Origin: Faecalibacterium sp. CAG:1138
GTDB lineage: Bacteria; Bacillota; Clostridia; Christensenellales; CAG-917
Assembly (NCBI GenBank): GCA_000434675.1
Contig: HF988637.1
Span: 106,141-170,140, forward strand
Direction of reading: 5' to 3'
DNA: 64,000 nt
Shown here: piece after piece, positions 6,113 through 22,768 of the stretch
Layout of the letters: every line of letters starts with the position of its first letter
Numbering within the stretch: position 1 is the first letter of the stretch
Notes under the pieces: model-generated
The model's database searches: none
Seen by the model: the letters and a program-made list of their open reading frames with translations, nothing else
Told to the model about the DNA's origin: nothing
Translations under genes and position numbers: made by a program

Positions 6113-6430
6113 ATTATAGGAAACAGAACAAGAAAATTTGCCTACAATTTTAGGGCAAGCGAACAAGAGAAAAATTTAATAGATAGCGCAATAGCAAAAA
6201 GCGGACTTACGATAACGGACTTTGTAATTCGGGCAATTATTGATAAGCCTATTACCGTGATAGAAAACGGCAACGAGATTTTAGCCGAACTAAAACGGCA
6301 AGGCAACAACCTAAACCAAGTCGTTAGAAACAGTTATAACGGCTTGGTTACGGAAGAAGAAATAAAGGCGTGCATCAAAAGTCTGAAAGAACTATACCGC
6401 AAAATATCTATTGCAATCGGAGGTGGATAA
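6113..6430 (+). CDS. mobC: MobC-family relaxosome accessory protein (ORF absent from the supplied track; non-canonical start)
   Basis: The frame is open from 6065 and has no ATG/GTG/TTG. A strong RBS AAAGGAGGG (6101-6109) precedes ATT 6113 / ATA 6116. Translation '..RTRKFAYNFRASEQEKNLIDSAIAKSGLTITDFVIRAII....LAELKRQGNNLNQVVRNSYNG..' carries the MobC signature G-x-N-L-N-Q. Stop TAA 6428-6430 overlaps ATG 6430 of the relaxase (TAATG). Confidence 0.6.
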   Translation: MIGNRTRKFAYNFRASEQEKNLIDSAIAKSGLTITDFVIRAIIDKPITVIENGNEILAELKRQGNNLNQVVRNSYNGLVTEEEIKACIKSLKELYRKISIAIGGG

Positions 6431-7575
6431 TGCCACTTTTTAAGTGTAGTGCAAGCAAAGCAAAACCGAAAAACGGTATCGCGTATATCACCGACGAAAA
6501 GAAAGCAAAGATAGTGTCGGTTAGAAATCTTTTTGAAGACGAGGACTACGCACAGCAGTTTGACGAAACGGCAAGTCGGTTCGGCAAGGGGGATAAGTTT
6601 GAAGAGCGTAAATATTATCATTGTAAATTATCATGCGCACGTCAAGATAACGTTTCGCCTGAAAAGGCGCACGCTTACGCGGAAGAACTTACGGCAAAAT
6701 TATTTCAAAACTACGAGTGCGTAATCGCTACCCACACGGACACGCAAACGGTACATAGCCATATTATCGTAAACGCGGTGGACCCGATAACGGGTAAGAA
6801 ATTGCAGTTTAATAAACAAGACTACGTAAATATGAAAGACGAAGCGAATAGGATAGGGAAGAAATACGGGTTTAGCGAAACGGATTTTAGAAAGCGTGGT
6901 AAAAACAGCAGAACGGTAGTTGAGAAAAAGATAATGCTCAAAGGCGGTATTAGTTGGAAAGAAGAACTTAGAGAAGTAATTGCGGAAGCAACCAAAAACT
7001 CAACCACGCCTGACAACTTCAAGGATTATCTTGAAAAATGTTACGGCGTAAAAATCACAAGGGATGGAAAGGATTATTCTTACCTGCATCCCGACAAGCA
7101 AAAACCTATCCGAGGGGAAAAGCTCGGAACAAATTATACAAAAAAGGAGATTTTAAGGAAAATTGATGAACAAAATAACGGGCGAATATCCTCAGCCCAT
7201 AATCGAGGACCAACCGGTGGATATTTCAAGAAATCCGGCGATATTGGATTTACAAGAAGAAGCAAAAAGATTAACAGCAGAAGCGCGCGAGGCAATGTTT
7301 TTGCAAGCATTGGCGACATCGAGAGAGCAATGCAACGACTTGATTTTGACGCAAAATGTGCGAATCGCGGAACAGACGCAGCAAGTGAAGAACTTAGAAT
7401 GGAGCAACAAAAAGCTCGTGAACGAGCTGAGAGGAGACGTTTGGATGCTATCGAAAGAAGTCAAAGAGAGCAACAACCAATTGTCGAAGAGTCTCAACCA
7501 AACGCTGAGCAAGATATCGGAAACAGTAACGGACATCGAGCATCAAGTAAGTACAGCTACGGCAAAGGCGACTGA
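6430..7575 (+). CDS. Mobilisation relaxase (MobA/VirD2 relaxase family)
   Basis: N-terminal Tyr region 'NGIAYITDEKKA' and histidine-triad motif 'HTDTQTVHSHIIVNAV' (HxDx..HxH). The start is placed at ATG 6430, coupled to mobC. The track start at 6370 adds 20 unlikely residues. Confidence 0.8.
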   Translation: MPLFKCSASKAKPKNGIAYITDEKKAKIVSVRNLFEDEDYAQQFDETASRFGKGDKFEERKYYHCKLSCARQDNVSPEKAHAYAEELTAKLFQNYECVIATHTDTQTVHSHIIVNAVDPITGKKLQFNKQDYVNMKDEANRIGKKYGFSETDFRKRGKNSRTVVEKKIMLKGGISWKEELREVIAEATKNSTTPDNFKDYLEKCYGVKITRDGKDYSYLHPDKQKPIRGEKLGTNYTKKEILRKIDEQNNGRISSAHNRGPTGGYFKKSGDIGFTRRSKKINSRSARGNVFASIGDIERAMQRLDFDAKCANRGTDAASEELRMEQQKARERAERRRLDAIERSQREQQPIVEESQPNAEQDIGNSNGHRASSKYSYGKGD

Positions 7576-7810
7576 CGAAGCGGTAAGAGTGATGAAGCAA
7601 AGCATTACTAAAATGGCAGATAACGCCGTAATCGCTGTAAATGAAAGTGCCGGTAAGATGATGAGCGAGGTTAATAAAGCGAAGAAAGAAATTGAAAAAG
7701 CGAAAGACGGTATCCGTTTTGAAAGCGGTTTTAGAAAGTTTATGTTTTGGCTTTCACCCGTACTAGCGATTGCGCAAACCATTGCGCTTGCAATAGTGAT
7801 ATTTGGTTAA
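7166..7810 (+). CDS. Coiled-coil protein with C-terminal transmembrane anchor, nested out of frame in the relaxase 3' end
   Basis: It has its own RBS AAGGA (7155-7159) 6 nt before ATG 7166. It overlaps the relaxase by ~410 nt in another frame and is the only ORF covering 7576-7810. It ends in the TM segment 'FMFWLSPVLAIAQTIALAIVIFG'. Confidence 0.5.
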   Translation: MNKITGEYPQPIIEDQPVDISRNPAILDLQEEAKRLTAEAREAMFLQALATSREQCNDLILTQNVRIAEQTQQVKNLEWSNKKLVNELRGDVWMLSKEVKESNNQLSKSLNQTLSKISETVTDIEHQVSTATAKATDEAVRVMKQSITKMADNAVIAVNESAGKMMSEVNKAKKEIEKAKDGIRFESGFRKFMFWLSPVLAIAQTIALAIVIFG

Positions 7811-7840
7811 AAGAATTTTCTCAAAAGAATATAAAACAGC

Positions 7841-7869
7841 TTGACTATCTCGTGATATCACGGTATAAT
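7841..7869 (+). promoter_or_regulatory. Near-consensus sigma-70 promoter upstream of tnpV
   Basis: TTGACT (7841-7846), a 17-nt spacer, then TATAAT (7864-7869). Confidence 0.6.
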
Positions 7870-7899
7870 GTAGCTACAATAAATCTAAGGGAGGGTTTT

Positions 7900-8262
7900 A
7901 TGAACGTAGAAGAAATCATTAAAAAAGCGGAAAGAAACGAAGGGTTGACTGTGGAAGAAGTAAAAATCTATCAACAAGCAGTTAAACCTATAAAGCACGT
8001 TTACGGCAAGTATGGAACGCTTGCAAAACAGTATATTGAAGAGCATAACTTTGGTAAATTGTTAAGTTTAGCAGGGCAGTTGCCTGAATATTTGCACGGA
8101 GTAGATAAAGCCGCCGAAGAACTTTATGACGTTATGTGGGACAAACTTTCTAAAAGCGAACAGTATTGCCCTACGGGTAATTACTTGGAAGACGTTAAAA
8201 GAATTAACGCTATGAAACAAGTGATTGAAGAAGAGATTTTAAGCGAAATAGTTTATATTTAA
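7900..8262 (+). CDS. tnpV: TnpV-like transposon-encoded protein
   Basis: 'YGKYGTLAKQYIEEHNFGKLLSLAGQLPEYLHGVDKAAEELYD...INAMKQVIEEEILSEIVYI' resembles the TnpV family of Tn4451/Tn4453-type mobilisable transposons. RBS GGGAGGG precedes ATG 7900; the track start at 7747 overlaps the upstream gene. Confidence 0.6.
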   Translation: MNVEEIIKKAERNEGLTVEEVKIYQQAVKPIKHVYGKYGTLAKQYIEEHNFGKLLSLAGQLPEYLHGVDKAAEELYDVMWDKLSKSEQYCPTGNYLEDVKRINAMKQVIEEEILSEIVYI

Positions 8263-8274
8263 GGAGAAAATACA

Positions 8275-8493
8275 ATGGAAAAACAATTAACGCCGAAACA
8301 AAAGGCAAGAATTAAGTATGAAATCGTGCATAAGGAAGAGCGTGAGCAAGCAACAAGACAGTTTAACACGAGACTTCCTGTGAAAGAGCACGATGAAATA
8401 ATGGCTTTCTTAAAACAAAAAAGAATTTCAAAAGTAGATTTGATTAGATTAGGATATCAAACGCTAAGAAAAGAATTTGAAGAAAGCAAATAA
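8275..8493 (+). CDS. Small ribbon-helix-helix-like DNA-binding protein
   Basis: 72 aa. 'RQFNTRLPVKEHDEIMAFLKQKRISKVDLIRLGYQTL' has a strand-helix-helix pattern. RBS AAGGAGAAAA precedes the ATG. Confidence 0.4.
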   Translation: MEKQLTPKQKARIKYEIVHKEEREQATRQFNTRLPVKEHDEIMAFLKQKRISKVDLIRLGYQTLRKEFEESK

Positions 8494-8630
8494 CAGCGGG
8501 ACACTATATGTGCTTAATACACCCGTAATGTCGGGAATTAATAAGGAGAAAAATGATTGAATAGGGCATCCGTATTTATCTTTCCGTTAAAAGTGCGGAT
8601 ATCACCCTATAAAATAAAAATTAAGGAGAA

Positions 8631-8906
8631 TTGAATTATAAGGAATTAAATTTAAGAGAAGAAAAATTAAATAATGAAGTGGAAAATCAAGGTTGCTACA
8701 AAGCCCAAAACGTGGAGAAAATCGACAAGTCAAAAATAAATATGGAGGTGTTAAATAAGATTATCGCGTTTAAGATGTTAGAGATTATGCGTGATAACGA
8801 AATGATTGACGAGCGAGAATACGCCAAAATCGAAAAGAAGCGTTCTCAGTTTGGGGAAAGTGTAGTAAAGCAAAATAAATTATTTAAAGGAGGCGATTTA
8901 ACTTGA
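8631..8906 (+). CDS. Hypothetical protein upstream of and overlapping the serine recombinase start
   Basis: 91-aa ORF with TTG start after RBS AAGGAGAA. It overlaps the next gene by 4 nt. No motif recognised. Confidence 0.35.
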   Translation: MNYKELNLREEKLNNEVENQGCYKAQNVEKIDKSKINMEVLNKIIAFKMLEIMRDNEMIDEREYAKIEKKRSQFGESVVKQNKLFKGGDLT

Positions 8907-10678
8907 TTGAAAACGGAATGGTAATGCCCACTAACGTTAATTTTAACAGGGCAAGGCAAAGAAGAGTGGTTTTCTACGGACGAGTAAGCACGGAACACGA
9001 AGCGCAACTTTCGGCGTTAGAAAATCAGATGCAATGGTACGACGACGTGGCGGATAGAAATCCTAATTGGTATGTTATTAAGAAATATATCGACGAAGGG
9101 ATTACGGGAACGCAAGCGAAAAAGCGACCTGCATTTTTAAGGATGATACAAGACGCTAAACAAAAAAAGTTCGATTTAATCGTAACGAGAGAAGTGTGTA
9201 GATTTGCAAGAAACACGGTTGATACGCTTGTTGTTACGAGAGAGTTAAAAGAGTACGGCATCGAAGTCTATTTTGTGGAAGACAACATTTGGACGATGGA
9301 CGGAGACGGAGAATTAAGACTCACGATTATGGCAACGCTTGCGCAAGAAGAAAGCAGAAAAATTTCCGAACGTGTTCGAGCAGGGCAGAAAATCAGTAGA
9401 GACAAAGGCGTTTTGTATGGAAGTGGTAATATTCTTGGTTATGATAGGGACAAGGCAAAAGGAACTTACGTAATCAACGAAGAACAAGCCGAAACGGTGC
9501 GTATGATTTACGATATGTATTCGGCAGGCAAAGGAATATCTCAAATTCGTGACGAGATGATACGACTTAAAAGAAAAGATAGTTCGGGGTTAGTTAGATG
9601 GGAGAATGCGAAAGTATCACGAGTACTACATAACTCAACCTATAAAGGCTATCCTGCCTACTTAAAATCACGAAGAAATAATTTCCTTGACCAAAAAATT
9701 ATTTTAAACCGTGACGAAGATACCTATCTTTACGTAAAAGGCGATTTTGAGCCGATTATATCCGAAGAGCAATGGGATAGATGCAAGCAAATTAGAGAGC
9801 AACGTACAAGGTATAGAAAATTTCGCACGGAAAACGGGGAAGTTCTTCACAAAACGGGCATTCACGAAAGTAGCGACGTTTGGACGAAGAAATTAAAATG
9901 TAGATGCGGTTATAAAATGCGCAAAAACAAATGGCGTAAGAATAAAAACGGCGAAGTCACCTATGGATATAAATGCTATAACCAACTTAACTATGGTTCT
10001 AAGGATATTAGAATTGAAGCAGGGATTGACGATTCAAAAAGTTGTAATCTTAGAGAAATATGCGATTGGAAATTAGAAATGATGGCAAGGCATATTTTTG
10101 CAGGGTTATGGGGTAACAAGAAAGATATTCTAAATAACGTGTCCTCTTTATATCAAATCGGTGTGTTTCAAGAATATCAAAAAGCGGCGGAAATTAAGGC
10201 AACGGTTGATAAAGAGATAGCAAAGTTAGACGAAAAACTAAAACGCTTAACTCGTATGCGCTTGGAAGACGAAATTCCAAAAGAGTCTTACTTAGAACTC
10301 AAAAAGGAAATTGAGCAAGAGAAAATCGAACTTATAAACAAAAGGCGTATTCTTGATGCGGGGATGGTTCCAAACGAAGACGGGGAAGAAGAGCCTGCAA
10401 AAAAGGTGGAAGACTTCTTGTTGTCGAAAATGGATTTTACCGAACACTACGTAGATAGAGAAGTGATTAAACAGTTCGTTCATACCATTGTTCCCGTAAC
10501 GGAAACGTGCTTTAATTGGTATATGAACTTTGACTTAATTGACGTGCCAAACGACATGAAAAAGTTAGTATGGGAATTTACGATTGATTATAAATCGGCA
10601 AGGTCTTATAGAAAGGAAAAGAACGGTATGCTTAGACCAAATCAATGGCAAGATTTAACGGTAAAAGTGTTTATATAA
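8903..10678 (+). CDS. Large serine recombinase (TnpX/phage-integrase type)
   Basis: Resolvase catalytic domain: 'VVFYGRVSTEHEAQ' (catalytic Ser) and 'DLIVTREVCRFARN'. A recombinase domain follows, then the Cys-rich 'KCRCGYKMRKNKW...YKCYN' zinc ribbon and a C-terminal coiled coil. Total 591 aa. Confidence 0.9.
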   Translation: MIENGMVMPTNVNFNRARQRRVVFYGRVSTEHEAQLSALENQMQWYDDVADRNPNWYVIKKYIDEGITGTQAKKRPAFLRMIQDAKQKKFDLIVTREVCRFARNTVDTLVVTRELKEYGIEVYFVEDNIWTMDGDGELRLTIMATLAQEESRKISERVRAGQKISRDKGVLYGSGNILGYDRDKAKGTYVINEEQAETVRMIYDMYSAGKGISQIRDEMIRLKRKDSSGLVRWENAKVSRVLHNSTYKGYPAYLKSRRNNFLDQKIILNRDEDTYLYVKGDFEPIISEEQWDRCKQIREQRTRYRKFRTENGEVLHKTGIHESSDVWTKKLKCRCGYKMRKNKWRKNKNGEVTYGYKCYNQLNYGSKDIRIEAGIDDSKSCNLREICDWKLEMMARHIFAGLWGNKKDILNNVSSLYQIGVFQEYQKAAEIKATVDKEIAKLDEKLKRLTRMRLEDEIPKESYLELKKEIEQEKIELINKRRILDAGMVPNEDGEEEPAKKVEDFLLSKMDFTEHYVDREVIKQFVHTIVPVTETCFNWYMNFDLIDVPNDMKKLVWEFTIDYKSARSYRKEKNGMLRPNQWQDLTVKVFI

Positions 10679-10905
10679 CATAAGAATGATAAGGGAAAAA
10701 CTTAGAAAAAATTAAAACTGAATACAACCGCTACGGCGGATAAATATATGGATAATAGTATCGTGATAACAGCCTAAAACTAAACGGGCAATTTGTCGCT
10801 AAGGGCAAAAGATAACGAGCACAGGCGAACATCCGTAATCCGAGGGCGACCAAATAAGTCCGAAATCGGCTAAAAAACGCATAATTTATACTAAAACGCA
10901 CGAAA

Positions 10906-10940
10906 AGCAGTCATTCTTGCGAAAGAGTGACTGCTTTTTT
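10906..10940 (+). terminator. Rho-independent terminator downstream of the serine recombinase
   Basis: AGCAGTCA (10906-10913) pairs with TGACTGCT (10928-10935), followed by a T-run. Confidence 0.6.
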
Positions 10941-11061
10941 CTCTGCATTTAGTTCGTCAAAACTCGAAAAATACCCTAAAAAACGGGGGTGGTCAGAAAA
11001 ATGTTACACTTTCCCGTATATACGGATACAGGTAAAAGAGGGCGATAAAAGGAGCGTTTTT

Positions 11062-11616
11062 ATGGTAAAATATATACTTATGATAGAATATCTTTTGAAA
11101 AACAACAACTATTCTCAAGTTGCTACGCTATGCGGATGTTCGCGAATGACGGTATGGCGGGTCTTGCAGCGCATTGATTTTTTGAGTATTTCGCTTGACG
11201 AGATAAAGGAAATGAAGGAAGAAGAACTTCGCTTTTTACTGTTTCCCGAACGGATAAAAAAAGGTAACGGTTATTTGATACCCGACTTCAAATGGGAAGA
11301 ATTTCAAATGAGGAAACATCAATCTTCACTTCGGTTATGTTGGCGAAGATATTGCAAACGCGCTTTGAAACAAAATCTTAAAGCGTATAGTTGGGCAAGC
11401 TTTGTTTTCTTCTATGGTCAATTTCGTAAGCCGTGTTCTGATGAAGATGATCCAAAAGATAAAGTGAGAAACAAGTTGAAACATTATAATTTAATGCTGT
11501 CATATTGCAATCCAAACGGCGAGCAATATCAAAAGTTAAAGAAAGAAAAGGAAGAGTGGCTTAAATCACTACACCTTGACGAAAGCAAAATAGTAGACAA
11601 AACCTATGAGTTATAG
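11062..11616 (+). pseudogene. IS21-family transposase (IstA) N-terminal HTH fragment, lacking the DDE domain
   Basis: 'SQVATLCGCSRMTVWRVL', then '..LFPER.....YLIPDFKWEEFQMRKHQSSLRLCWRRY......AYSWASFVFFY', matches the IstA N-terminal layout (HTH, then LFP..PD...L.LLW.EY...YSYS.F). The ORF ends ~60 aa later with no catalytic domain and no istB. Confidence 0.5.
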
Positions 11617-11744
11617 GATAGTCAATAAATAAAAATGGAATTTATATATACAAAACGATAATAGAAAACACCATTTAAATGATTGCATAAACTCGGATAT
11701 TCGTAAAAGAACATTCGACTTTGTAATTTAATATAAGAAACATA

Positions 11745-11780
11745 AGAGAGAACAAGGATAAATGTTCTCTCTCTTTTTTA
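11745..11780 (+). terminator. Rho-independent terminator
   Basis: AGAGAGAACA-aggataaa-TGTTCTCTCT followed by CTTTTTT. Confidence 0.65.
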
Positions 11781-11856
11781 TGCCGTTTCGAGGGGTGATT
11801 TCCTATTTACGGTGAGAAAAATTATAATAATAACAGTAAATCGAAAGGAGTTTTCA

Positions 11857-12791
11857 ATGAAATACAAAGATTGGTTGGACGTATGGTTTGCGAACTACAT
11901 AGAGCCTTCGTCTAAAACGAAAACGTGCGAAAGATATTCGGAGATTATCGAAAAGCACTTGAAGGTAAAGTTGGGCGAGTACGAGCTTGAAGAACTGTCG
12001 CCCATCGTCATACAGAAGTATATTACCGAACTTATGCAGTCGGGCAATCTGACAACCGGAAAGGGGTTAGCGGCTAATTCCGTAAACAGGATTATTACGG
12101 TTATTCAGAATTCTCTGAAACTTGCGTATACGCTCGGAGAGCTAAAAGAGTACACGACAGACAAAATCAGACTACCGAAAACGAAAGAGAAAGAAGTATC
12201 CTGTTTTTCGCTTGCCGAACAGAAGAAGATAGAGCAGGCGGCGTTATCGAGTAAGAAGCGTAAATTCATCGGGATCGTGATTTGTCTTTATTCGGGTTGC
12301 GTATCGGAGAATTGCTTGCGCTTACTTGGGCAGATATTGATTTCACGAAAGGAACGCTTGCGGTGAACAAAACCTGCCACGACGGGCGAGATGAAAACGG
12401 GAATCTCTGCCGGATCACGGACTTGCCGAAAACAACTTCTTCCAAAAGAATGATTCCGCTTCCGAAGCAGTTGCTTCCCGTTCTGAAAGAATATAAGAGA
12501 AAAAGCATTTCGGAGTATGTTGTGGAATCGGAAAAGGGCGAGCCGCCTACGGTGCGATCTTATCAGAGAACCTTTGAACTTTTGCAAAAGCGTTTGCATA
12601 TTGAGCGTAAAGGTTTCCACTCGCTTCGGCATACGTTTGCTACACGCGCTTTGGAATGCGGGATGGACGTGAAAACATTGGCGGAGATATTGGGGCATAA
12701 AAACGCCACGGTAACGCTGAACAGATACGCCCATTCGCTTATGGAACACAAGCAGGATATGATGAATAAGCTCGGCAAAATTTTCAACTAA
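11857..12791 (+). pseudogene. Tyrosine site-specific recombinase (integrase/invertase family) interrupted by a 1-nt frameshift near 12297
   Basis: The N-terminal SAM-like domain (ORF 11857..12366) reads '..GIVICLYSG'. The text then continues in the next frame as 'LRIGELLALTWADIDF...' (ORF ..12791). The catalytic residues are in 'HSLRHTFATRALECG...LGHKNATVTLNRYAH'. The junction is at 'tcgggttgcg'. Confidence 0.8.
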
Positions 12792-12793
12792 AA

Positions 12794-12999
12794 AAGCCGT
12801 CTGTTAAAGCAATAGGTGAACAAAACCATAGACTTCGGACACCTATCGAGAGTATTTACGAATTTTATTATTTTTCTGACCGCGCGAAAGCACTGAACAT
12901 CGACTTTACTACCGTTTTATGGTATAATAAACATAATATTTGAGCCGTCTATTGCTTTAATAGGCGAACAAAATTCTGCGAGATAATTCACCTATCGGG
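12794..12999 (+). repeat. Module 1: ~57-nt structured repeat units R1 (12794-12850) and R2 (12942-12999) bracketing a promoter; candidate invertible promoter
   Basis: R1 core is CCGTCTGTT-AAAGC-AATAGGTG (12797-12818). R2 core is CCGTCTATT-GCTTT-AATAGGCG (12945-12966). The central pentamers are reverse complements, which gives a perfect 12-bp inverted repeat TTAAAGCAATAG (12804-12815 vs 12949-12960). Confidence 0.6.
12900..12928 (+). promoter_or_regulatory. Extended -10 promoter inside module 1, pointing at the SLOG gene
   Basis: TCGACT (12900-12905), a 17-nt spacer, then TGgTATAAT (12920-12928). Confidence 0.55.
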
Positions 13000-13009
13000 A
13001 GTCATTGAA

Positions 13010-13480
13010 TTGGATATTTTTCGGGTTTCATTTATAGGTCATAGAGTAGTGTACGAGTACCGGCAAGTCGAAGAAGAACTTGACGAAGTAATCGAATTAC
13101 TGCACCGTAAATATGGGTTTATAGACTTTAACGTGGGACGAAACGGCGAGTTTGACGAACTTGCCACACAAGCCGTCAGACGATTCCGAAGAGAATGGGA
13201 AGAGTGGTGCGAGCTTACGCTTGTCGAACCGTATCCCGTGGCGAACTTGGATATTATAGAGAAGTCTTATGATAGCGTTATTATCCCGACCGATAGGAAA
13301 TGCCATTACAAAGCGGCGATAGGAGAACGCAACAAATGGCTTGCCGAGAATTGCGATATGATGGTCGTCTATATCAAGCGTGATTATGGCGGTGCGTATA
13401 AATGCTATAAGTACGCACAGGAACTTGGTGTGCCGATTATGAATATAGCGGATAATATCAAAAATAATTACGAAAAGTAA
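13010..13480 (+). CDS. SLOG-superfamily / DUF1273-like (YpsA-type) protein
   Basis: 156 aa with TTG start after GGGAG. 'VSFIGHR' (compare the xTGHR start of DUF1273 proteins), 'VGRNGEFDELATQAV', '..ERNKWLAENCDMMVVYI...GGAYKCYKYAQELGVPIMNI' follow the Rossmann-like YpsA/DprA-LOG layout. Confidence 0.5.
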   Translation: MDIFRVSFIGHRVVYEYRQVEEELDEVIELLHRKYGFIDFNVGRNGEFDELATQAVRRFRREWEEWCELTLVEPYPVANLDIIEKSYDSVIIPTDRKCHYKAAIGERNKWLAENCDMMVVYIKRDYGGAYKCYKYAQELGVPIMNIADNIKNNYEK

Positions 13481-13535: not shown

Positions 13536-13740
13536 AAGCCGTCTATTCGCATAATAGGCGAACAATCGAAAGAGTTGTGTTCACCTATCGAAAAGATTTA
13601 TGGAAAAACAAGAGATTTTCACTTGCGCAAAAAGGCTTTATATTGACCTTTCTTCTTTTTTATGGTATAATATAACATAGATTAAAGCCGCCTATTATGC
13701 GAATAGGCGAACAAAATAAAGTGTGTTTGTTCGTCTATCC
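13536..13740 (+). repeat. Module 2: repeat units R3 (13536-13592) and R4 (13685-13740) bracketing the hsdM promoter; candidate invertible promoter
   Basis: R3 core is CCGTCTATT-CGCAT-AATAGGCG (13539-13560). R4 core is CCGCCTATT-ATGCG-AATAGGCG (13688-13709). The pentamers are reverse complements, which gives a perfect 15-bp inverted repeat CTATTCGCATAATAG (13543-13557 vs 13692-13706). Confidence 0.6.
13643..13671 (+). promoter_or_regulatory. Near-consensus promoter inside module 2, pointing at hsdM
   Basis: TTGACC (13643-13648), a 17-nt spacer, then TATAAT (13666-13671), with TG at 13663-13664. Confidence 0.65.
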
Positions 13741-15876: not shown

Positions 15877-15884
15877 GGTGCAAT

Positions 15885-17132
15885 ATGAGAGAGATGAAAG
15901 ACAGCGGAATATCTTGGGTAGGAGAGATACCCAAAGAGTGGAGTGTTTGGCGCAATAAATATATTTTTAAAATAACAAAGGATATTGTTTTGCCAAGCAA
16001 AAGTTACCAACTTTTATCGTTGACTACAACCGGAATAAAAGAAAAAGATGAAAACGATAATGGTGGAAAAGTGCCTGAAAATTATGATGGATATCAAATT
16101 GTTAAAGAAAATGATTTGGTAATGTGTCTATTTGATCTTGATTGTTCGGCAGTCTTTTCGGGTTTAAGCCCGTATAACGGTATGATTTCCCCGGCATACA
16201 AGGTCTTAAAAGTAAAGAAACGTATAGCAAACGAGCAGTATTATAGGTATTGGTTTAATTATGTTGGTTCAAAACGTTTTTATAAGCAATACTCTAAAAG
16301 TTTGAGATTCACGTTAAATGCTGATGAGTTTAATCGCTTATTTTCGCTTTTACCACCGCTTGACGAGCAACAGAGAATTGCGGAGTTTTTGGATAGGGAG
16401 TGCGGGAAGATTGACGGATTGAAAGCGGATATTCAGGCGCAGATTGATACGCTTGAACAATATAAGCGTTCCGTAATTACCGAAGCCGTTACTCACGGTC
16501 TGAATCCGTCCGCCCCGATGAAAGACAGCGGTATTCCGTGGGTGGGACAATTTCCAACTCATTGGACAAAGAAAAAGGGGAAGTATATTCTTCGTTATAT
16601 GTCTAAACCCGTAAAGCAAGATGACGGTGTTATAACCTGTTTCAGGGATGGAGAGGTTACGCTTCGCAGTAATCGCCGAGAAGATGGTTTTACGATGGCA
16701 GACAAAGAAATTGGTTATCAAGGCGTTGATGTGGGAGATTTGGTTGTTCACGGAATGGACGGTTTTGCCGGTGCTATCGGAATTTCGGATTCAAGAGGCA
16801 AAGCGTCACCTGTGCTAAACGTCTTAAATACAAAGCAAAATAAAAAATACATAATGTATTATTTGAGAAGTATGGCGTATGGGGATGTTTTTACGGCTTT
16901 ATCGACAGGAATCAGAGTACGTTCTTGCGATTTGAGGTGGAACAAACTTGCCGAATTGCTATATCCGTTGCCGCCGATAGATGAGCAAAATAATATTGTA
17001 AATTATATTGATGAGCAAATTGCTCGAACAAACGAGATTATCGCGGATAAAAAATCGCAAATCGAAACGCTTGACGGCTACAAAAAATCGCTCATTTACG
17101 AATATGTTACGGGCAAAAAGGAGGTGGGATAA
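15885..17132 (+). CDS. hsdS: Type I R-M specificity subunit S (two target-recognition domains)
   Basis: Duplicated conserved spacer regions 'LPPLDEQQRIAEFLDRECGKIDGL...LEQYKRSVITEAVTHGL' and 'LPPIDEQNNIVNYIDEQIARTNEII...LDGYKKSLIYEYVTGKK'. ATG 15885 follows RBS GAGGTG. Confidence 0.9.
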   Translation: MREMKDSGISWVGEIPKEWSVWRNKYIFKITKDIVLPSKSYQLLSLTTTGIKEKDENDNGGKVPENYDGYQIVKENDLVMCLFDLDCSAVFSGLSPYNGMISPAYKVLKVKKRIANEQYYRYWFNYVGSKRFYKQYSKSLRFTLNADEFNRLFSLLPPLDEQQRIAEFLDRECGKIDGLKADIQAQIDTLEQYKRSVITEAVTHGLNPSAPMKDSGIPWVGQFPTHWTKKKGKYILRYMSKPVKQDDGVITCFRDGEVTLRSNRREDGFTMADKEIGYQGVDVGDLVVHGMDGFAGAIGISDSRGKASPVLNVLNTKQNKKYIMYYLRSMAYGDVFTALSTGIRVRSCDLRWNKLAELLYPLPPIDEQNNIVNYIDEQIARTNEIIADKKSQIETLDGYKKSLIYEYVTGKKEVG

Positions 17133-17133
17133 A

Positions 17134-17484
17134 ATGGATATAAATTTAATGAGCGGTAATTTTTGTTCGGCTGAGCAGTATCATAGAGCCTTAGAAGAAG
17201 CCGAAAAAGAACAAAAACAGCAAAAAATCGAAGAAGAAAGAAAAATAGAAATATTAAATTCGCCGATTGTAGAACAATTGCGATCATTGGTTGAGCAAAG
17301 TAATAAACAAGTCAATGTTTTGCAAGAAGAAAACGAAATACGAAAACAGCAGGTGGCTAAACTTGAAGAAAGCGAAGAAAGAGCCAGAAAGGAAGCAAGA
17401 TCAGCGAAAAATCTCAGCATCATTTCATTTTGCGTGAGTACGGCAATAGCAATTGCTTCGGTGATTGTGTCGATAGTAAAATAA
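17134..17484 (+). CDS. Tail-anchored coiled-coil membrane protein (unknown function) embedded in the R-M operon
   Basis: ATG 17134 lies 1 nt after the hsdS stop (17130-17132). 116 aa: a Glu/Lys/Gln-rich heptad-like region, then the C-terminal TM 'LSIISFCVSTAIAIASVIVSIV'. The track's 17008 start overlaps hsdS and is rejected. Confidence 0.6.
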   Translation: MDINLMSGNFCSAEQYHRALEEAEKEQKQQKIEEERKIEILNSPIVEQLRSLVEQSNKQVNVLQEENEIRKQQVAKLEESEERARKEARSAKNLSIISFCVSTAIAIASVIVSIVK

Positions 17485-17505
17485 AATGAAAGGAGGGATA
17501 GAATA

Positions 17506-18438
17506 ATGTGGTGGGAATGGATGATATTTGCCATTGTGCTTGTGATTGTTCCATTTGGAGTAAAGGGTTTGAAAAAGCTTGCTTTTTCGGAAATTACACC
17601 GACAAAAGAACAAGAGCGTTATGCACGGAATAAAGCTGTTTTATATACGGCATTCTTTTGGCTCTGCGATTTGTTTGGCATGTCTTTTATCATAGACAAT
17701 ATCGCATGTCGCTTTGCGTTTGGCATTATGGTTATGATTTGTATCTTCGCAAATTTAGCAGTGCAACCTGTTGTTGGTGCAAAAGGTTTTTTGTCAAAAT
17801 TGGGGTTGATTGGTGACTTTTTGTGCGGTGTTGGATTTTCTATATATCTGATTTACATAATCCCAAACAAAGATTTGAGAACGGTTGTTTTGGCAATTGT
17901 CGCAGCGGTATATGGCGGAATGATGACTTTGGTCGGCGTTGCGTGGACAATAAAGAAAGGTGACAAAGATAGAAAAGAAGATTTACAGCGACTCGAAAAT
18001 GAACGAAAAGAAGAGGAACGTATAAAATATAGTCCTGTATTCAGCGTTGTGGAAAAAAACGCTGATCCTCAAAAACGAATATTAATTAATTTAAGCACGG
18101 TTGAAAACATAAATAAGATTACTACTAACAAAAAAAACAAGAACAACATCGAACTTTATCCAGTACTCATAGAAAATTCAAGCAAAATAGAGTTTTATGT
18201 GTACGGTTTTTTGTTCGATGGCGTTTTCTATGCGACACAAGAAAAATATCTCATAAAGAAAGATTATGGTTTTTGTGTTTATTTCGATGATGATTTGAGT
18301 TTTACATGCGAACATAAGATGGCTATTTGTGTAGAGGATTTGATAGAAAACAAATACGAGGCTGAATTAAATGGAATCGTTGAAAATAAAACTCTATACA
18401 TACGAGGAAATAAAAAATTGCAATTGATGGGAGCATAA
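17506..18438 (+). CDS. Polytopic membrane protein (about 5 N-terminal TM helices + ~140-aa soluble C-terminal domain), unknown function, embedded in the R-M operon
   Basis: RBS AAAGGAGGG (17489-17497) precedes ATG 17506. Stop 18436-18438 lies 1 nt before the hsdR ATG 18440. No recognisable catalytic motif. Visibly more AT-rich than flanking hsdM/hsdR. Confidence 0.6.
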   Translation: MWWEWMIFAIVLVIVPFGVKGLKKLAFSEITPTKEQERYARNKAVLYTAFFWLCDLFGMSFIIDNIACRFAFGIMVMICIFANLAVQPVVGAKGFLSKLGLIGDFLCGVGFSIYLIYIIPNKDLRTVVLAIVAAVYGGMMTLVGVAWTIKKGDKDRKEDLQRLENERKEEERIKYSPVFSVVEKNADPQKRILINLSTVENINKITTNKKNKNNIELYPVLIENSSKIEFYVYGFLFDGVFYATQEKYLIKKDYGFCVYFDDDLSFTCEHKMAICVEDLIENKYEAELNGIVENKTLYIRGNKKLQLMGA

Positions 18439-18439
18439 A

Positions 18440-21421
18440 ATGAATAATATACTCACAGAAAAAGAATATCAGCGGTTTATCATAGATAAGCTCGTTGCTG
18501 AAAACGGCTACGTAGAGCGGAAAAACGTGAAGTTCGACCGTAAGTTTGCTATCGACCGTGAAATGCTGTTCAAGTTTCTTGACGATACACAGCCCGAAGC
18601 GATGGCGCAGATTCGCAAGGTGTATAAAGACGTTACCGAAGATACGGTGGTGAACTTTATCAATACCGAAATCACGAAAGCGAAAAGCAGTCTGTTATCC
18701 GTATTAAAACACGGCGTGGAAATCGCGGGGTATAAGTTAGACCTTATGTATACCAAGCCCGCAACGACTTTCAATAAAGACTTGCTTATAAAATACAATA
18801 AAAATATCTTTTCCGTAATGGAAGAAGTGTGGGCGAGTGATACCGAGAGAATCGACCTTGTGGTTTTCCTGAACGGCTTTGCGATTATGTCGTTTGAACT
18901 CAAATGCAATTTTGCGGGGCAGAGCTATCAGGACGCGATTTTGCAATACCGCACGCAAAGAAACCCGAAAACGCGGTTGTTCTATTTCAAGGCGGGGTGT
19001 ATCGTCAACTTTGCAATGGACTTGGAAGAAGTGTATATGACGACGCGCCTTGCGAACGACGGCACGTTCTTTCTGCCGTTCAATATGGGTAGCGGCAACG
19101 GTATTGACGCGGGCAAGGGCAATCCCGTTTATCCCGACAAATATTCCGTCTATTATATGTGGGAAGATATACTCAAAAAAGATACGGTGTTAGACCTTAT
19201 CTCGGAGTTTATCTTTATCGAGCGCAAGGAAGAAACGGACGAAGTAACGGGCAAAACCACGGTAAAAGAAAAGGTGGTTTTTCCGCGCTATCATCAACTT
19301 GACGTGATCCGCAAAACGATAGCGGACGTGGAAGTCAACCGCACTTCGCAAAACTATCTGATACAGCACAGCGCGGGTTCGGGCAAAACGAATTCCATTG
19401 CGTGGCTTGCACACAGGCTTTCTTCGCTTCACGACGAAGAAAACAAAATCGTTTTTGATAATATCATCATCTGCACCGACCGCGTGGTGGTGGACAGGCA
19501 GTTGCAGGACGCGGTGCGCGGTATCGAACACAAGACGGGGCTTATTAAGGTGATGGACGATAAATGTTCGTCGGCAGACCTTGCTCTCGCGCTTCAAAGC
19601 AATATCAAGATTATCGGCACGACGATACAGAAATTTCCGTATATCGTGGACACGGTGAGAAATCTGAAAAACAAGACTTTTGCCGTGATTATCGACGAAG
19701 CGCATTCTTCCACCGCCGGAAAAGATATGGCGGCAATCACGATGACGCTCGGCGCGGGCGAAGTGGATTTTGAAGAAGGCGTTATCGATACGCAGGATAT
19801 GATTGCGGACGAAATCCGTCGCAACGGCAAGCAAAAGAACGTTTCTATGTTTGCCTTTACCGCAACACCGAAAGCGACTACTCTCGACTTGTTCGGCAGA
19901 TTGAACGCAAAAGGGCAGAAAGAAGCCTTCCACTTGTATTCGATGAAACAGGCGATAGAAGAAGGTTTTATTTTAGACGTGCTTGCCAACTTCACCGAAT
20001 ACAATACGTATTATCGGCTGAACAAAGAGATCTCGGAAGATCCGAAGTATAAGACGGCGGAAGCCAAAAAGCAAATCGCGCGGTTTGTGGAACTGCACGA
20101 AACGAATATCGCGCAAAGGGTGGAAGTGATTGTCGAACATTTCCGCACGACGGTTTTATCTGAACTCGGCGGAATGGCAAAGGCAATGGTGGTAACGGCT
20201 TCCCGCGCAAGTGCGGTGAAGTACCGACAGGCGTTTGAAGATTACGTTACCAAGAAAGGCTACGCGGGTATTCACGCGCTTGTGGCATTTTCGGGAAAAG
20301 TAAAACTGCCCGACGACGAAGCGGAATACACGGAAACGCTTCTGAACGGATTTTCGGAAGATAAACTGCCTAAAAAGTTTGATTCGGACGATTACAATGT
20401 TTTGCTTGTGGCGAACAAGTATCAGACGGGCTTCGACCAACCGAAACTTTGCGCAATGTACGTTTTGAAGAAGTTGCGCGGGGTGAACGCGGTGCAGACG
20501 TTGTCGCGCCTGAACCGTATCTGCCCGCCGTTTGAGAAAAAGACGTTTGTTCTCGATTTCGTGAATACATACGACGATATTGTCAAGGCGTTTGCGCCGT
20601 ATTATACCACGACGTTGCTTGCAAATTCGGTTACGCCGACGGCGGTATACGACTTGGAAGCGAAACTCGACGGATATATGATTTTAGATCCTTACGACTT
20701 GAATATGGCGGCAGAGATTATCTACAAAAAGATTATCGAATCAAAGGACAAAAATCAGTTGCGTTTCTATCTGCAACGCGCCGAGAAAAAGCTGAAAGAA
20801 TACGAATTGATGAAACAAATCGAGATAATGGCGGTCGTGCGGCATTTTATCCGGTTCTACGAGTTCCTGATACAGGTATCGTGTTTTGAGGACGTGGAGC
20901 TGCATAAAAAGTATTTGTTTTTGACTTATTTCGTGTCGTTCGTAAATATTTCTCAGCCGGGCGGCGGTTTCGATTTATCAGGCAAGATAAAAGCGGACAA
21001 CTTTATCCAAAAGAAAGGCGAAGAACATAAAACAACCAAAGTTACGCCCGATCCGATCGTAAAACTGCCGACGGCGGACGACTTTAATCTGAACGAGGAC
21101 AAAGTAAAACGCCTTTCGGAGATTATCGACGAAATCAACAGCAAAACGGGCAAAACCTACGATAACGACGTCGTAATCAAGGCAATGCTTCAAATCAAAG
21201 ACTTGATGATGAAGTCCGAAAAACTGCGCGAGAGTGCGAAAGCAAACACGGAAAGCGACTTTGCGTTTTCGTATTTCGACGGTATCGACGACGCGCTGAT
21301 CGAGGGACTTTCGCAAAATCAGGACTTTTTCTCGTTGCTTCTTTCTAACGACGAAATGAAGAAAGAGGTTCTTGGTATCTTCGTCAGCGAGATTTACAAG
21401 AGCTTGAGAGAAGATAAATAA
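18440..21421 (+). CDS. hsdR: Type I R-M restriction subunit R (nuclease + SF2 helicase/translocase)
   Basis: N-terminal PD-(D/E)xK-like 'RIDLVVFLNGFAIMSFELK'. Helicase motif I 'QHSAGSGKTNSIAW' and motif II 'VIIDEAHSS'. 993 aa. Confidence 0.92.
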   Translation: MNNILTEKEYQRFIIDKLVAENGYVERKNVKFDRKFAIDREMLFKFLDDTQPEAMAQIRKVYKDVTEDTVVNFINTEITKAKSSLLSVLKHGVEIAGYKLDLMYTKPATTFNKDLLIKYNKNIFSVMEEVWASDTERIDLVVFLNGFAIMSFELKCNFAGQSYQDAILQYRTQRNPKTRLFYFKAGCIVNFAMDLEEVYMTTRLANDGTFFLPFNMGSGNGIDAGKGNPVYPDKYSVYYMWEDILKKDTVLDLISEFIFIERKEETDEVTGKTTVKEKVVFPRYHQLDVIRKTIADVEVNRTSQNYLIQHSAGSGKTNSIAWLAHRLSSLHDEENKIVFDNIIICTDRVVVDRQLQDAVRGIEHKTGLIKVMDDKCSSADLALALQSNIKIIGTTIQKFPYIVDTVRNLKNKTFAVIIDEAHSSTAGKDMAAITMTLGAGEVDFEEGVIDTQDMIADEIRRNGKQKNVSMFAFTATPKATTLDLFGRLNAKGQKEAFHLYSMKQAIEEGFILDVLANFTEYNTYYRLNKEISEDPKYKTAEAKKQIARFVELHETNIAQRVEVIVEHFRTTVLSELGGMAKAMVVTASRASAVKYRQAFEDYVTKKGYAGIHALVAFSGKVKLPDDEAEYTETLLNGFSEDKLPKKFDSDDYNVLLVANKYQTGFDQPKLCAMYVLKKLRGVNAVQTLSRLNRICPPFEKKTFVLDFVNTYDDIVKAFAPYYTTTLLANSVTPTAVYDLEAKLDGYMILDPYDLNMAAEIIYKKIIESKDKNQLRFYLQRAEKKLKEYELMKQIEIMAVVRHFIRFYEFLIQVSCFEDVELHKKYLFLTYFVSFVNISQPGGGFDLSGKIKADNFIQKKGEEHKTTKVTPDPIVKLPTADDFNLNEDKVKRLSEIIDEINSKTGKTYDNDVVIKAMLQIKDLMMKSEKLRESAKANTESDFAFSYFDGIDDALIEGLSQNQDFFSLLLSNDEMKKEVLGIFVSEIYKSLREDK

Positions 21422-21509: not shown

Positions 21510-22361
21510 TTGTGTGGGATTTTGACAGGACCTTTATATGTTTCTGAACGGATGAAAGAAATACCGGAATTTCAGGAAAATCAAAAATTGCTAGATGAAC
21601 TTGGTATTGCAACCTATAATTATTTTAATGCTGTCTATGTTTTGAACAAAAAAATAGATTCAGATAGAAATAAATTCTTTTCAAAAAAATATATAGAAAA
21701 AATGGATGAATATGCAGATAAAGGACTGCTGCTTTATTTTCTTGAAACTCCGGATATTGATTTGCTTGATGAAGAATTGACGGAAAATTATTTAATTGAC
21801 ACTTATTTATATAATGATTGTCTTGGTTTCAAAATAATGCTTGATAGATATGTAAGCATACTTAATCCAAGCCCTATTATGCGAAGGAAGAGTGAAGATA
21901 TAATTGTAGCTATTAATCTTTTGAACGAAGGTTGTTACCGTTCAGCAGCCAGAAATATTTTTGCTTTATTAGAAAGTGAACACAAGCGTTGTGCAAATGC
22001 GTTTGAAGGATATTTTACAAAAAAGAAAGAGTATAGAAAGGGGCATGAGCGAGCAAATAAGATAAAAGATTTATTGGATAAAATCAGTATAGAATGGGAA
22101 CAGCATAGTTGGGAAAAAATTAATAATTACTATAAAAAGATTTTCGCTAATGACAAGATTGAAGATATTTGTTTTAGGAACGGTATTGTTCATGGAGATT
22201 ATTCAGAAGATGCCATTGATACTAACGCCGTGGAAGTCGGTAAGTTAGTTTTATTGTGGCTAAATTTAAGATTGTTAGCGGACAGTTTAAGTATTTTTGA
22301 AGATGGCTACAACAGTGTGCTTTCCTATTTAACGGGATGGGCAATAGACCAAGAATCTTAA
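21510..22361 (+). CDS. Putative HEPN-like protein (Rx4H motif); 5' end uncertain (possible frameshift or upstream mini-ORF)
   Basis: 'ICFRNGIVHGDY' gives R-x4-H near the C-terminus of a mostly helical protein. The only strong RBS (GGAGGAAAAT) serves ATG 21491, which opens an 18-codon ORF 'MSNRIAIVWDFDRTFICF' in another frame (21491-21547). Alternative in-frame start: ATG 21552. Confidence 0.4.
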   Translation: MCGILTGPLYVSERMKEIPEFQENQKLLDELGIATYNYFNAVYVLNKKIDSDRNKFFSKKYIEKMDEYADKGLLLYFLETPDIDLLDEELTENYLIDTYLYNDCLGFKIMLDRYVSILNPSPIMRRKSEDIIVAINLLNEGCYRSAARNIFALLESEHKRCANAFEGYFTKKKEYRKGHERANKIKDLLDKISIEWEQHSWEKINNYYKKIFANDKIEDICFRNGIVHGDYSEDAIDTNAVEVGKLVLLWLNLRLLADSLSIFEDGYNSVLSYLTGWAIDQES

Positions 22362-22741: not shown

Positions 22742-22768
22742 CAGCCGTCCGAAAGGGCGGCTGTTTTT
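22742..22768 (+). terminator. Rho-independent terminator closing the accessory region
   Basis: CAGCCGTCC-gaaa-GGGCGGCTG (9 bp, one G-U pair) followed by TTTTT. Confidence 0.75.

Follow-up and report, generated by a model that had tools for sequence, protein, structure and literature searches.

We analysed a stretch of 64,000 nucleotides (nt) from Faecalibacterium sp. CAG:1138 (GenBank GCA_000434675.1, contig HF988637.1, positions 106,141 to 170,140), hereafter the window, and focused on two open reading frames (ORFs), orfA and orfB, lodged inside a type I restriction-modification (R-M) operon. The window exhibits five genes on the + strand in the order hsdM, hsdS, orfA, orfB, hsdR, from 13789 to 21421 (Table 1). 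The assembly index lists the exact window sequence in 98 blocks, and the locus that gives the window context is L166 in our numbering of loci (offset 7505). HsdM, HsdS and HsdR all exhibit the Pfam and PADLOC domains that define type I R-M subunits; the surrounding operon is a genuine type I R-M system. The genes are tightly packed, with 1 nt between hsdS and orfA, 21 nt between orfA and orfB, and 1 nt between orfB and hsdR. The hsdS stop codon (TAA, 17130-17132) and the orfA ATG (17134) form the junction TAA-A-ATG, and the same junction is found between the orfB stop codon (18436-18438) and the hsdR ATG (18440). The orfA stop codon (17482-17484) is followed by the 21-nt spacer, which contains the Shine-Dalgarno sequence AAAGGAGGG, and by the orfB ATG at 17506. 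All of these start and stop coordinates had been given in a first-pass annotation of this DNA, and all were confirmed against the sequence.

Table 1. Features of the type I R-M operon and its flanks, in window coordinates (aa, amino acids; TM, transmembrane)
Feature	Position	Strand	Basis or remark
Mobile-element genes flanking the operon	6370..13480	+	relaxase, TnpV, serine recombinase, HTH protein, split tyrosine integrase, 156-aa protein
Candidate operon promoter, sigma-70-like	13643..13671	+	best match: TTGACC-17-TATAAT with TG, 11/12, 118 nt 5' of hsdM; consensus match only
hsdM, type I R-M methyltransferase subunit, 695 aa	13789..15876	+	PF12161, PF02384; PADLOC MTase_I 6e-228
hsdS, specificity subunit, 419 aa	15873..17132	+	PF01420 (two stretches); PADLOC Specificity_I 5e-87
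orfA, 116 aa, tail-anchored, facultative cassette	17134..17484	+	sequence, hydropathy, homologue loci
Shine-Dalgarno sequence AAAGGAGGG	17489..17497	+	8 nt 5' of the orfB ATG; read from sequence
orfB (310 aa), conserved 5-TM core, residues 1-149	17506..17952	+	AlphaFold helices, hydropathy, K/R counts, conservation
orfB, predicted cytoplasmic charged helix, residues 149-176	17950..18033	+	68% charged; prolongs TM5
orfB, predicted cytoplasmic beta-sandwich, residues 177-310 and stop codon	18034..18438	+	domain model, conservation
hsdR, restriction/translocase subunit, 993 aa	18440..21421	+	HSDR_N, SWI2_SNF2/ResIII, T1R_D3; PADLOC REase_I 1e-30
283-aa ORF, GC 0.313, between hsdR and terminator	21510..22361	+	no matches in Pfam, NCBIfam, PADLOC, PHROGs
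Terminator-like hairpin, candidate operon end	22742..22763	+	strongest: 9 pairs, 7 GC, then T run; consensus match only

The two ORFs had also been described as visibly more AT-rich than hsdM and hsdR and, for that reason, as a possible inserted module. The difference is real: the GC content is 0.356 for orfA and 0.349 for orfB (0.306 for the C-terminal domain of the latter) versus 0.461 for hsdM, 0.459 for hsdR and 0.463 for the whole window. However, hsdS (0.395) and the ORF 3' of hsdR are also low in GC, hence this property is not peculiar to orfA and orfB. The promoter and terminator in Table 1 come from consensus scans, in which promoter-like sites are not enriched over shuffled sequences (30 found versus 23.4 +/- 5 expected), so that the boundaries they assign to the operon are tentative.

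The junction between hsdS and hsdR is a polymorphic cassette slot, and the window holds two stacked cassettes. For a sample drawn without regard to OrfB, metagenomes were searched with the HsdR N-terminus. This gave 80 loci (L085-L164), and 75 of them, with an HsdR at least 70% identical, could be evaluated. In 28 of these the slot is empty, hsdS and hsdR being 3-9 nt apart, and the remainder hold about a dozen different cassettes. A TIR protein (PDC-S66/ThsB-like; Pfam TIR_2, 1.4e-21; PADLOC PDC-S66, 1e-44) and an unannotated protein of 137-145 aa occupy 11 loci each. Other unannotated proteins, of 327-336 aa and 122-145 aa, are found in 6 and 5 loci, a 212-aa single-TM protein and OrfA in 3 loci each, and a 228-aa protein combining an N-terminal TM segment with a beta part and a 189-aa protein in 2 loci each. 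OrfB, an FRG protein (PADLOC PDC-S15, 4e-104), a DarG-C-like protein and a 148-aa protein were each seen once. The suggestion of the first-pass annotation that an accessory slot like that of PrrC lies between hsdS and hsdR is thus borne out. When the window is compared with an empty-slot locus (L085), in which the hsdS stop codon overlaps the hsdR start, nucleotide homology ends at 17133 and resumes at 18440; the cassette boundaries coincide exactly with the ORF limits. The 3' end of hsdS (17035-17133) is conserved at 93-97% identity in nine of the 11 loci compared, whatever the slot content, and it supplies the ribosome-binding site for whichever gene comes next.

Several further features of these loci should be noted. 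Unannotated membrane-anchored occupants recur in the slot, namely the 228-aa beta-rich protein with its N-terminal TM segment and the 212-aa single-TM protein (L102:2113-2799, L111, L119:1267-1905). One unannotated occupant exhibits an RNDVMH motif, perhaps HEPN-like by eye, which Pfam did not confirm. A second slot, between hsdM and hsdS (15873-15876), has no occupant in the window, the hsdM stop codon overlapping the hsdS start; in sister loci (L001-L021, L167-L168) it contains DUF4145, KAP_NTPase, AbiJ_NTD4/Abi_C or an unannotated 181-aa protein. The position of the 283-aa ORF downstream of hsdR is likewise taken by different genes in sister loci, homology to two of them (L015 and L018) stopping at 21537. 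This ORF may represent a third variable position, or a passenger, of the operon.

OrfB exhibits five hydrophobic segments in its hydropathy profile, followed by a soluble domain. Its AlphaFold model (built with 53 homologues; pLDDT 81.5) places helices at residues 2-27, 34-63, 66-90, 95-117 and 122-175 and a beta domain at 179-310. A separate model of the C-terminal domain is of higher confidence (pLDDT 91, pTM 0.86) and shows an all-beta sandwich. The fifth helix runs on to residue 175 as the charged extension listed in Table 1. Fifteen lysine or arginine residues lie on the side of loops 1 and 3 and the C-terminal tail versus two on the opposite side, and variants of the family always carry an odd number (1 or 3) of additional N-terminal TM helices behind a lysine-rich (K/R-rich) N-terminus. 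Both observations argue for an N-out/C-in topology, with the beta domain predicted to be in the cytoplasm. Exposure to the outside would then be minimal, limited to two residues of the N-terminus and to outer loops of two and seven residues. An annotation of OrfB as a protein of about five TM helices with a beta-rich soluble domain, and of OrfA as a charged protein with a C-terminal TM anchor, was made before any modelling and agrees with the hydropathy profiles of both proteins and with the AlphaFold model of OrfB.

An alignment of 140 OrfB representatives reveals a constant membrane core joined to a variable C-terminal domain. TM5 is highly conserved, with a mean top-residue frequency of 0.75 and the motif GGxxTLxGVAWTI. 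Two acidic residues embedded in the membrane are retained by nearly all representatives (D55 in TM2, 91%; D/E104 in TM4, 95%). In contrast, the mean top-residue frequency of the beta domain is 0.26, although P177, N224, D278, N282 and Y284 within this domain are near-invariant (kept in 81-98%). A few relatives carry helical or other domains in place of the beta domain. In one representative from outside the window (P0274) a class-A beta-lactamase-like domain with an STTK motif replaces the beta-sandwich directly after the charged helix; it would be cytoplasmic by the predicted topology, and is either a true domain swap or an artefact of assembly or gene calling. As this is the sole recognisable case among the alternative C-terminal domains, we drew no functional conclusion from it.

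Neither OrfA nor OrfB exhibits an above-threshold match in Pfam, NCBIfam, PHROGs or PADLOC, and none of the 5027 models of PADLOC-DB v2.0.0, which include the HEC/PDC embedded candidates, matches either protein at E <= 0.1. Weak matches to Claudin_2 (18.7 bits against a cut-off of 29.1), SseC, DivIC, CD225 and an antiporter subunit F model (14.9 against 136) were taken as compositional, reflecting TM or coiled-coil segments. Fold searches with Foldseek against the PDB gave a best E-value of 0.08 for the full-length OrfB model and of 0.13 for its C-terminal domain; TRAP, ApaG and Caf1M, which came up for the latter, are generic beta-sandwiches with TM-scores of at most 0.39 and were set aside. 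Two BFVD fold matches (E = 2e-5 and 2e-4) are uncharacterised viral proteins and uninformative. Searching PDB sequences with the profile of the OrfB family (best E = 0.36) and with OrfA gave no match. The possibility, raised with the first-pass annotation, that the two proteins belong to a known transporter or housekeeping family thus finds no support, and neither does a known channel family, at the curated thresholds of Pfam and NCBIfam, in PADLOC or among PDB folds, the fold search having been run on the OrfB models. Our literature search found no paper describing the OrfB family.

The family is sizeable. A collection clustered at 90% identity contains 455 OrfB homologues, none of them named, and a profile search of 1.84 billion representatives returned 820 clusters (50% identity) at E <= 1e-3 and 248 at E <= 1e-30. 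Scanning one genome per species yielded 63 OrfB loci, all from metagenome-derived uncultured genomes. Most belong to gut or rumen Clostridia (among them Christensenellaceae, Eubacteriales and Acutalibacteraceae); there are also a few Bacilli, one Acholeplasmatales and a bin labelled Parasutterella. A tblastn search of isolate collections found nothing in 50,697 records of phages and 72,556 of plasmids; IMG/VR gave one match.

The great majority of OrfB homologues lie beside R-M or other defence genes. The first-pass annotation had asked what fraction of them lies between hsdS and hsdR: an OrfB homologue is located exactly there in about 23 of the 63 species. The HsdR proteins of these loci are 36-99% identical to that of the window, so the hsdS-orfB-hsdR arrangement is common to two or more deeply diverged lineages of type I systems. 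In three loci, homologues 54%, 51% and 39% identical to OrfB stand alone between hsdS and hsdR, and in five further loci type I genes adjoin OrfB in other orders. Loci with HsdM and HsdR 94-99% identical to those of the window can carry an OrfB only 35-54% identical, and hsdS varies too, so that a variable block is shuffled against a constant frame; OrfB identity does not follow that of HsdR (97-99%). Outside type I operons, some homologues lie directly 3' of a C5 methylase of 311 aa, in islands that also carry HNH_2, GmrSD, AbiEii, DUF4062 and YobI-ATPase, and others directly follow ResIII, Eco57I with ResIII, an N6_N4 methylase, an SLFN-type helicase, RES, DndB, Abi_2, DUF2971 or DUF3800. 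Among 118 neighbours from non-type-I loci, pooled as the 25 most frequent Pfam and PADLOC families, R-M and abortive-infection (Abi) families are foremost. By our own count an R-M component is adjacent at roughly two-thirds of the species loci, and the homologues are not found mostly in non-defence contexts. The IMG/VR match is a siphovirus-like contig (L165:5079-8333), in which a 454-aa homologue with 3+5 TM helices is accompanied by two HTH regulators. This insertion separates the major tail protein gene (phrog_88) from the tape-measure gene (phrog_1272), that is, a moron position. It should also be noted that the 156-aa protein encoded just 5' of hsdM (13010-13480), which exhibits only a weak PHROG match (phrog_289), has relatives of about 30% identity that recur no more than a few kb away from OrfB homologues, in contexts that are unrelated (L006-L008, L010-L012, L023-L025, L033, L078).

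OrfA consists of a charged helical region (residues 1-89, 39% charged) and a single C-terminal TM segment (93-116) by hydropathy; it is a tail-anchored protein with its charged region in the cytoplasm. Only ten relatives are detectable, every one of them close; tblastn finds versions 33-53% identical beside some OrfB genes. OrfA occupies the same slot without OrfB in ten loci (L015-L021, L091, L100, L109), and OrfB occurs without OrfA in L001-L009 and in most OrfB loci. The two are found together in the window lineage and in about seven of the 63 species (L022, L026, L034, L038, L042, L045, L048), including systems whose HsdR is 36-37% identical to that of the window and one locus outside a type I operon. 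An obligate two-protein module is therefore not supported: OrfA and OrfB are separable cassettes that sometimes move together, and a functional link between them is possible but not required. We also considered whether the N-terminal extensions of many OrfB homologues (95-130 aa, in frame) are fused copies of OrfA; they contribute the one or three additional TM helices and lack the OrfA coiled coil, and this idea was rejected.

The operon stands at the edge of a mobile element. Its genes between 6370 and 12791 encode a relaxase, TnpV, a serine recombinase (8903-10678) and an HTH protein, as well as a split tyrosine integrase that spans two ORFs (11812-12366, 12282-12791); the element adjoins dnaG (22985-24787) and rpoD. 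The orfA-orfB pair with the same R-M backbone is also present on a different element, with PcfJ/K, REP_ORF2-G2P and serine recombinases (L167-L169).

Taken together, these data suggest that OrfB is probably a new membrane-acting phage-defence protein. Our preferred explanation, to which we would give slightly better than even chances, is that OrfB is a self-contained defence cassette uniting sensor and membrane effector in a single polypeptide, with OrfA as a facultative partner. Judged from the architecture, the divergent cytoplasmic beta-sandwich would sense an infection cue and the conserved five-helix core would act as the effector, perhaps oligomerising through the charged helix. With its two buried acidic residues, the core might permeabilise the membrane by leaking ions, depolarising it and thereby arresting or killing the infected cell. 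Embedding would provide OrfB with co-transcription and co-transfer with the R-M system, and OrfB would thereby form a second barrier to phages that restriction fails to stop. Such an action would need no physical contact with HsdMSR. OrfA, the separable tail-anchored cassette, may modulate OrfB. This explanation follows, by analogy, the published "guilt-by-embedding" principle, by which a gene nested in a type I R-M locus usually serves in defence (bioRxiv 10.1101/2024.01.29.577857; PMC11411939), and the precedent of TgvAB, which protects from within a type I R-M operon without the restriction activity of the surrounding system (PMC11411939).

Several observations weigh against assigning OrfB to defence in this manner. 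OrfB is rare in the unbiased sample of the backbone (one of 75 loci), and about 14 of 60 species loci exhibit no recognisable defence neighbour, with PPDK, a hydrolase or a DnaG-like protein at positions -1 or -2. Neither homology nor fold searches matched OrfB to a known pore, channel or Abi effector, and a transporter or an intramembrane enzyme would account for the buried acidic residues just as well. The five near-invariant polar or aromatic residues of the beta domain would be better explained by a conserved ligand, or by a contact within the molecule, than by a hypervariable receptor for phage proteins. Finally, all relatives come from uncultured metagenome-assembled genomes (MAGs) or metagenome assemblies.

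Alternative explanations differ chiefly in the part they give to the R-M complex. The first-pass annotation proposed that the complex guards OrfA/OrfB as EcoprrI guards PrrC, so that OrfB, with or without OrfA, would be held inactive by HsdMSR and would damage the membrane once an anti-restriction protein of the Ocr/ArdA type disables the complex. The slot is the position of prrC, itself embedded in a type IC locus (PMC12707154), and is conserved over type I lineages only 36-39% identical in HsdR; orfA and orfB are tightly coupled in translation to hsdS and hsdR, effector-type proteins (TIR, FRG) use the same slot, and the frequent adjacency of a DNA methylase or another R-M component fits as well. 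However, the family is also found beside unrelated systems and inside a phage tail module lacking HsdMSR, its divergence is uncoupled from the near-identical HsdM and HsdR, and TgvAB works without restriction by its host operon (PMC11411939). The range of partners, the phage moron and the lack of co-variation with HsdR or HsdM argue against strict dependence of the PrrC type, and we regard such guarding as unlikely. A broader version takes the hsdS-hsdR junction as a general effector socket. Interchangeable effectors with exact ORF boundaries (OrfB, TIR, FRG and other cassettes) would all rely on the R-M complex to sense anti-restriction or stalled restriction, OrfB being the membrane-depolarising one. 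Across deeply diverged type I lineages both the position of the slot and its coupling are maintained, and OrfB would in that case be the first membrane-acting R-M guardian; we find this version unlikely.

OrfB, with or without OrfA, might instead be an R-M accessory that kills nothing and either tethers the type I enzyme at the membrane near the site of DNA entry or regulates its assembly. The gene is embedded and co-translated with the subunit genes, the cytoplasmic beta domain and charged helix could offer a docking surface, and type I enzymes of E. coli have been reported to associate with the membrane. Yet the 28 empty slots among 75 backbones imply that the R-M system does not need an occupant, unrelated soluble proteins (TIR, FRG) fill the same position, some OrfB genes had no type I system detected in their vicinity, and the best-conserved part of OrfB is the membrane core with the buried acidic residues rather than the putative docking domain. 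An accessory role of this kind appears very improbable. A passenger of the mobile element, either acting in entry or superinfection exclusion at the envelope or being a non-defence membrane protein that hitch-hikes in a recombination hot spot, would be in keeping with the location of the operon on integrative/conjugative elements (relaxase, TnpV, serine recombinases, PcfJ/K), with the prophage moron and with the loci devoid of defence neighbours. Against it, OrfB is barely exposed outside, its variable domain is predicted to be cytoplasmic, the phage and plasmid records searched lack the family but for the single IMG/VR match, and its neighbours are mainly R-M and Abi genes, not transfer genes. 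We therefore hold a passenger to be quite unlikely.

An accessory defence gene inside a type I R-M operon is of a known kind, whereas the OrfB family, its membrane nature and its confinement to uncultured gut Clostridia are not described in the libraries and literature searched. The conceptual value of the locus is accordingly limited, the principle that embedded genes are defence genes having already been published. If OrfB is indeed a defence effector, it stands for a sizeable and wholly unannotated family. Its members are confined to gut and rumen Clostridia that have not been cultured, and RefSeq-based discovery samples the phage defences of this group poorly. A single near-invariant backbone that is either empty or filled with about a dozen alternative cassettes also represents a natural experiment, and the cassettes are ready candidates and controls for comparing embedded genes that act alone with those wired to the R-M complex.

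Known systems resemble OrfB in different respects. The E. coli prr locus has the gene order prrA-B-C-D, with prrC between hsdS and hsdR. PrrC provides the second-line response upon restriction failure that we propose for OrfB. Like orfB, prrC is an accessory gene inside a type I R-M operon (EcoprrI, type IC; PMC12707154). The position between hsdS and hsdR, a hallmark of PrrC/RloC, is shared by the window and the species loci counted above. PrrC is soluble and combines an NTPase with an anticodon nuclease, whereas both OrfA and OrfB are membrane proteins and match neither activity. At E <= 0.1 in Pfam, NCBIfam and PADLOC they lack any P-loop/ABC match corresponding to the ABC-type NTPase domain of PrrC/RloC, residues 1-149 of OrfB being the five TM helices. 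The same three libraries give no HEPN or nuclease match corresponding to the HEPN-type C-terminal nuclease, the C-terminus of OrfB being all-beta. PrrC is moreover almost exclusively found in type I R-M loci (bioRxiv 10.1101/2024.01.29.577857), whereas OrfB stands beside many other systems.

The HEC/PDC candidates (Payne et al. 2024) and TgvAB of Vibrio cholerae VPI-2 are likewise nested in type I R-M operons and are independent, or predicted to be independent, anti-phage systems. Two of these candidates, PDC-S66 (TIR) and PDC-S15 (FRG), use in sister loci the very slot of OrfA and OrfB. The candidates were drawn from RefSeq genomes, whereas nearly all members of the OrfB family were found in MAGs and metagenome assemblies of uncultured gut and rumen bacteria, and TgvAB is a GmrSD-like nuclease pair rather than a membrane protein.

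Membrane-acting defence systems parallel the proposed mechanism. Of the two RexAB proteins of phage lambda, RexA is a soluble sensor and RexB a membrane ion channel with four helices. Like OrfB, RexB is a membrane protein encoded by a mobile element and proposed to depolarise the infected cell, perhaps together with a second protein; unlike RexA, OrfA is small, tail-anchored and dispensable in most OrfB loci, and there is no sequence relationship between the systems. Cap15-type effectors of CBASS (TM segments with a beta-barrel), the TM effectors of Pycsar and Cam1 of type III CRISPR combine TM helices with a cytoplasmic sensor, the activation of which leads to membrane disruption and abortive infection. 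No cyclase or CD-NTase appears beside OrfB in the neighbour tables of the individual loci or among the 25 most frequent Pfam and PADLOC families listed for the 118 neighbours, and the PDB search with the C-terminal domain gave no fold match to a cyclic-nucleotide-binding domain. OrfB exhibits the same architecture of TM helices plus a cytoplasmic domain as Cap15, Pycsar effectors and Cam1, with five or more TM helices rather than two.

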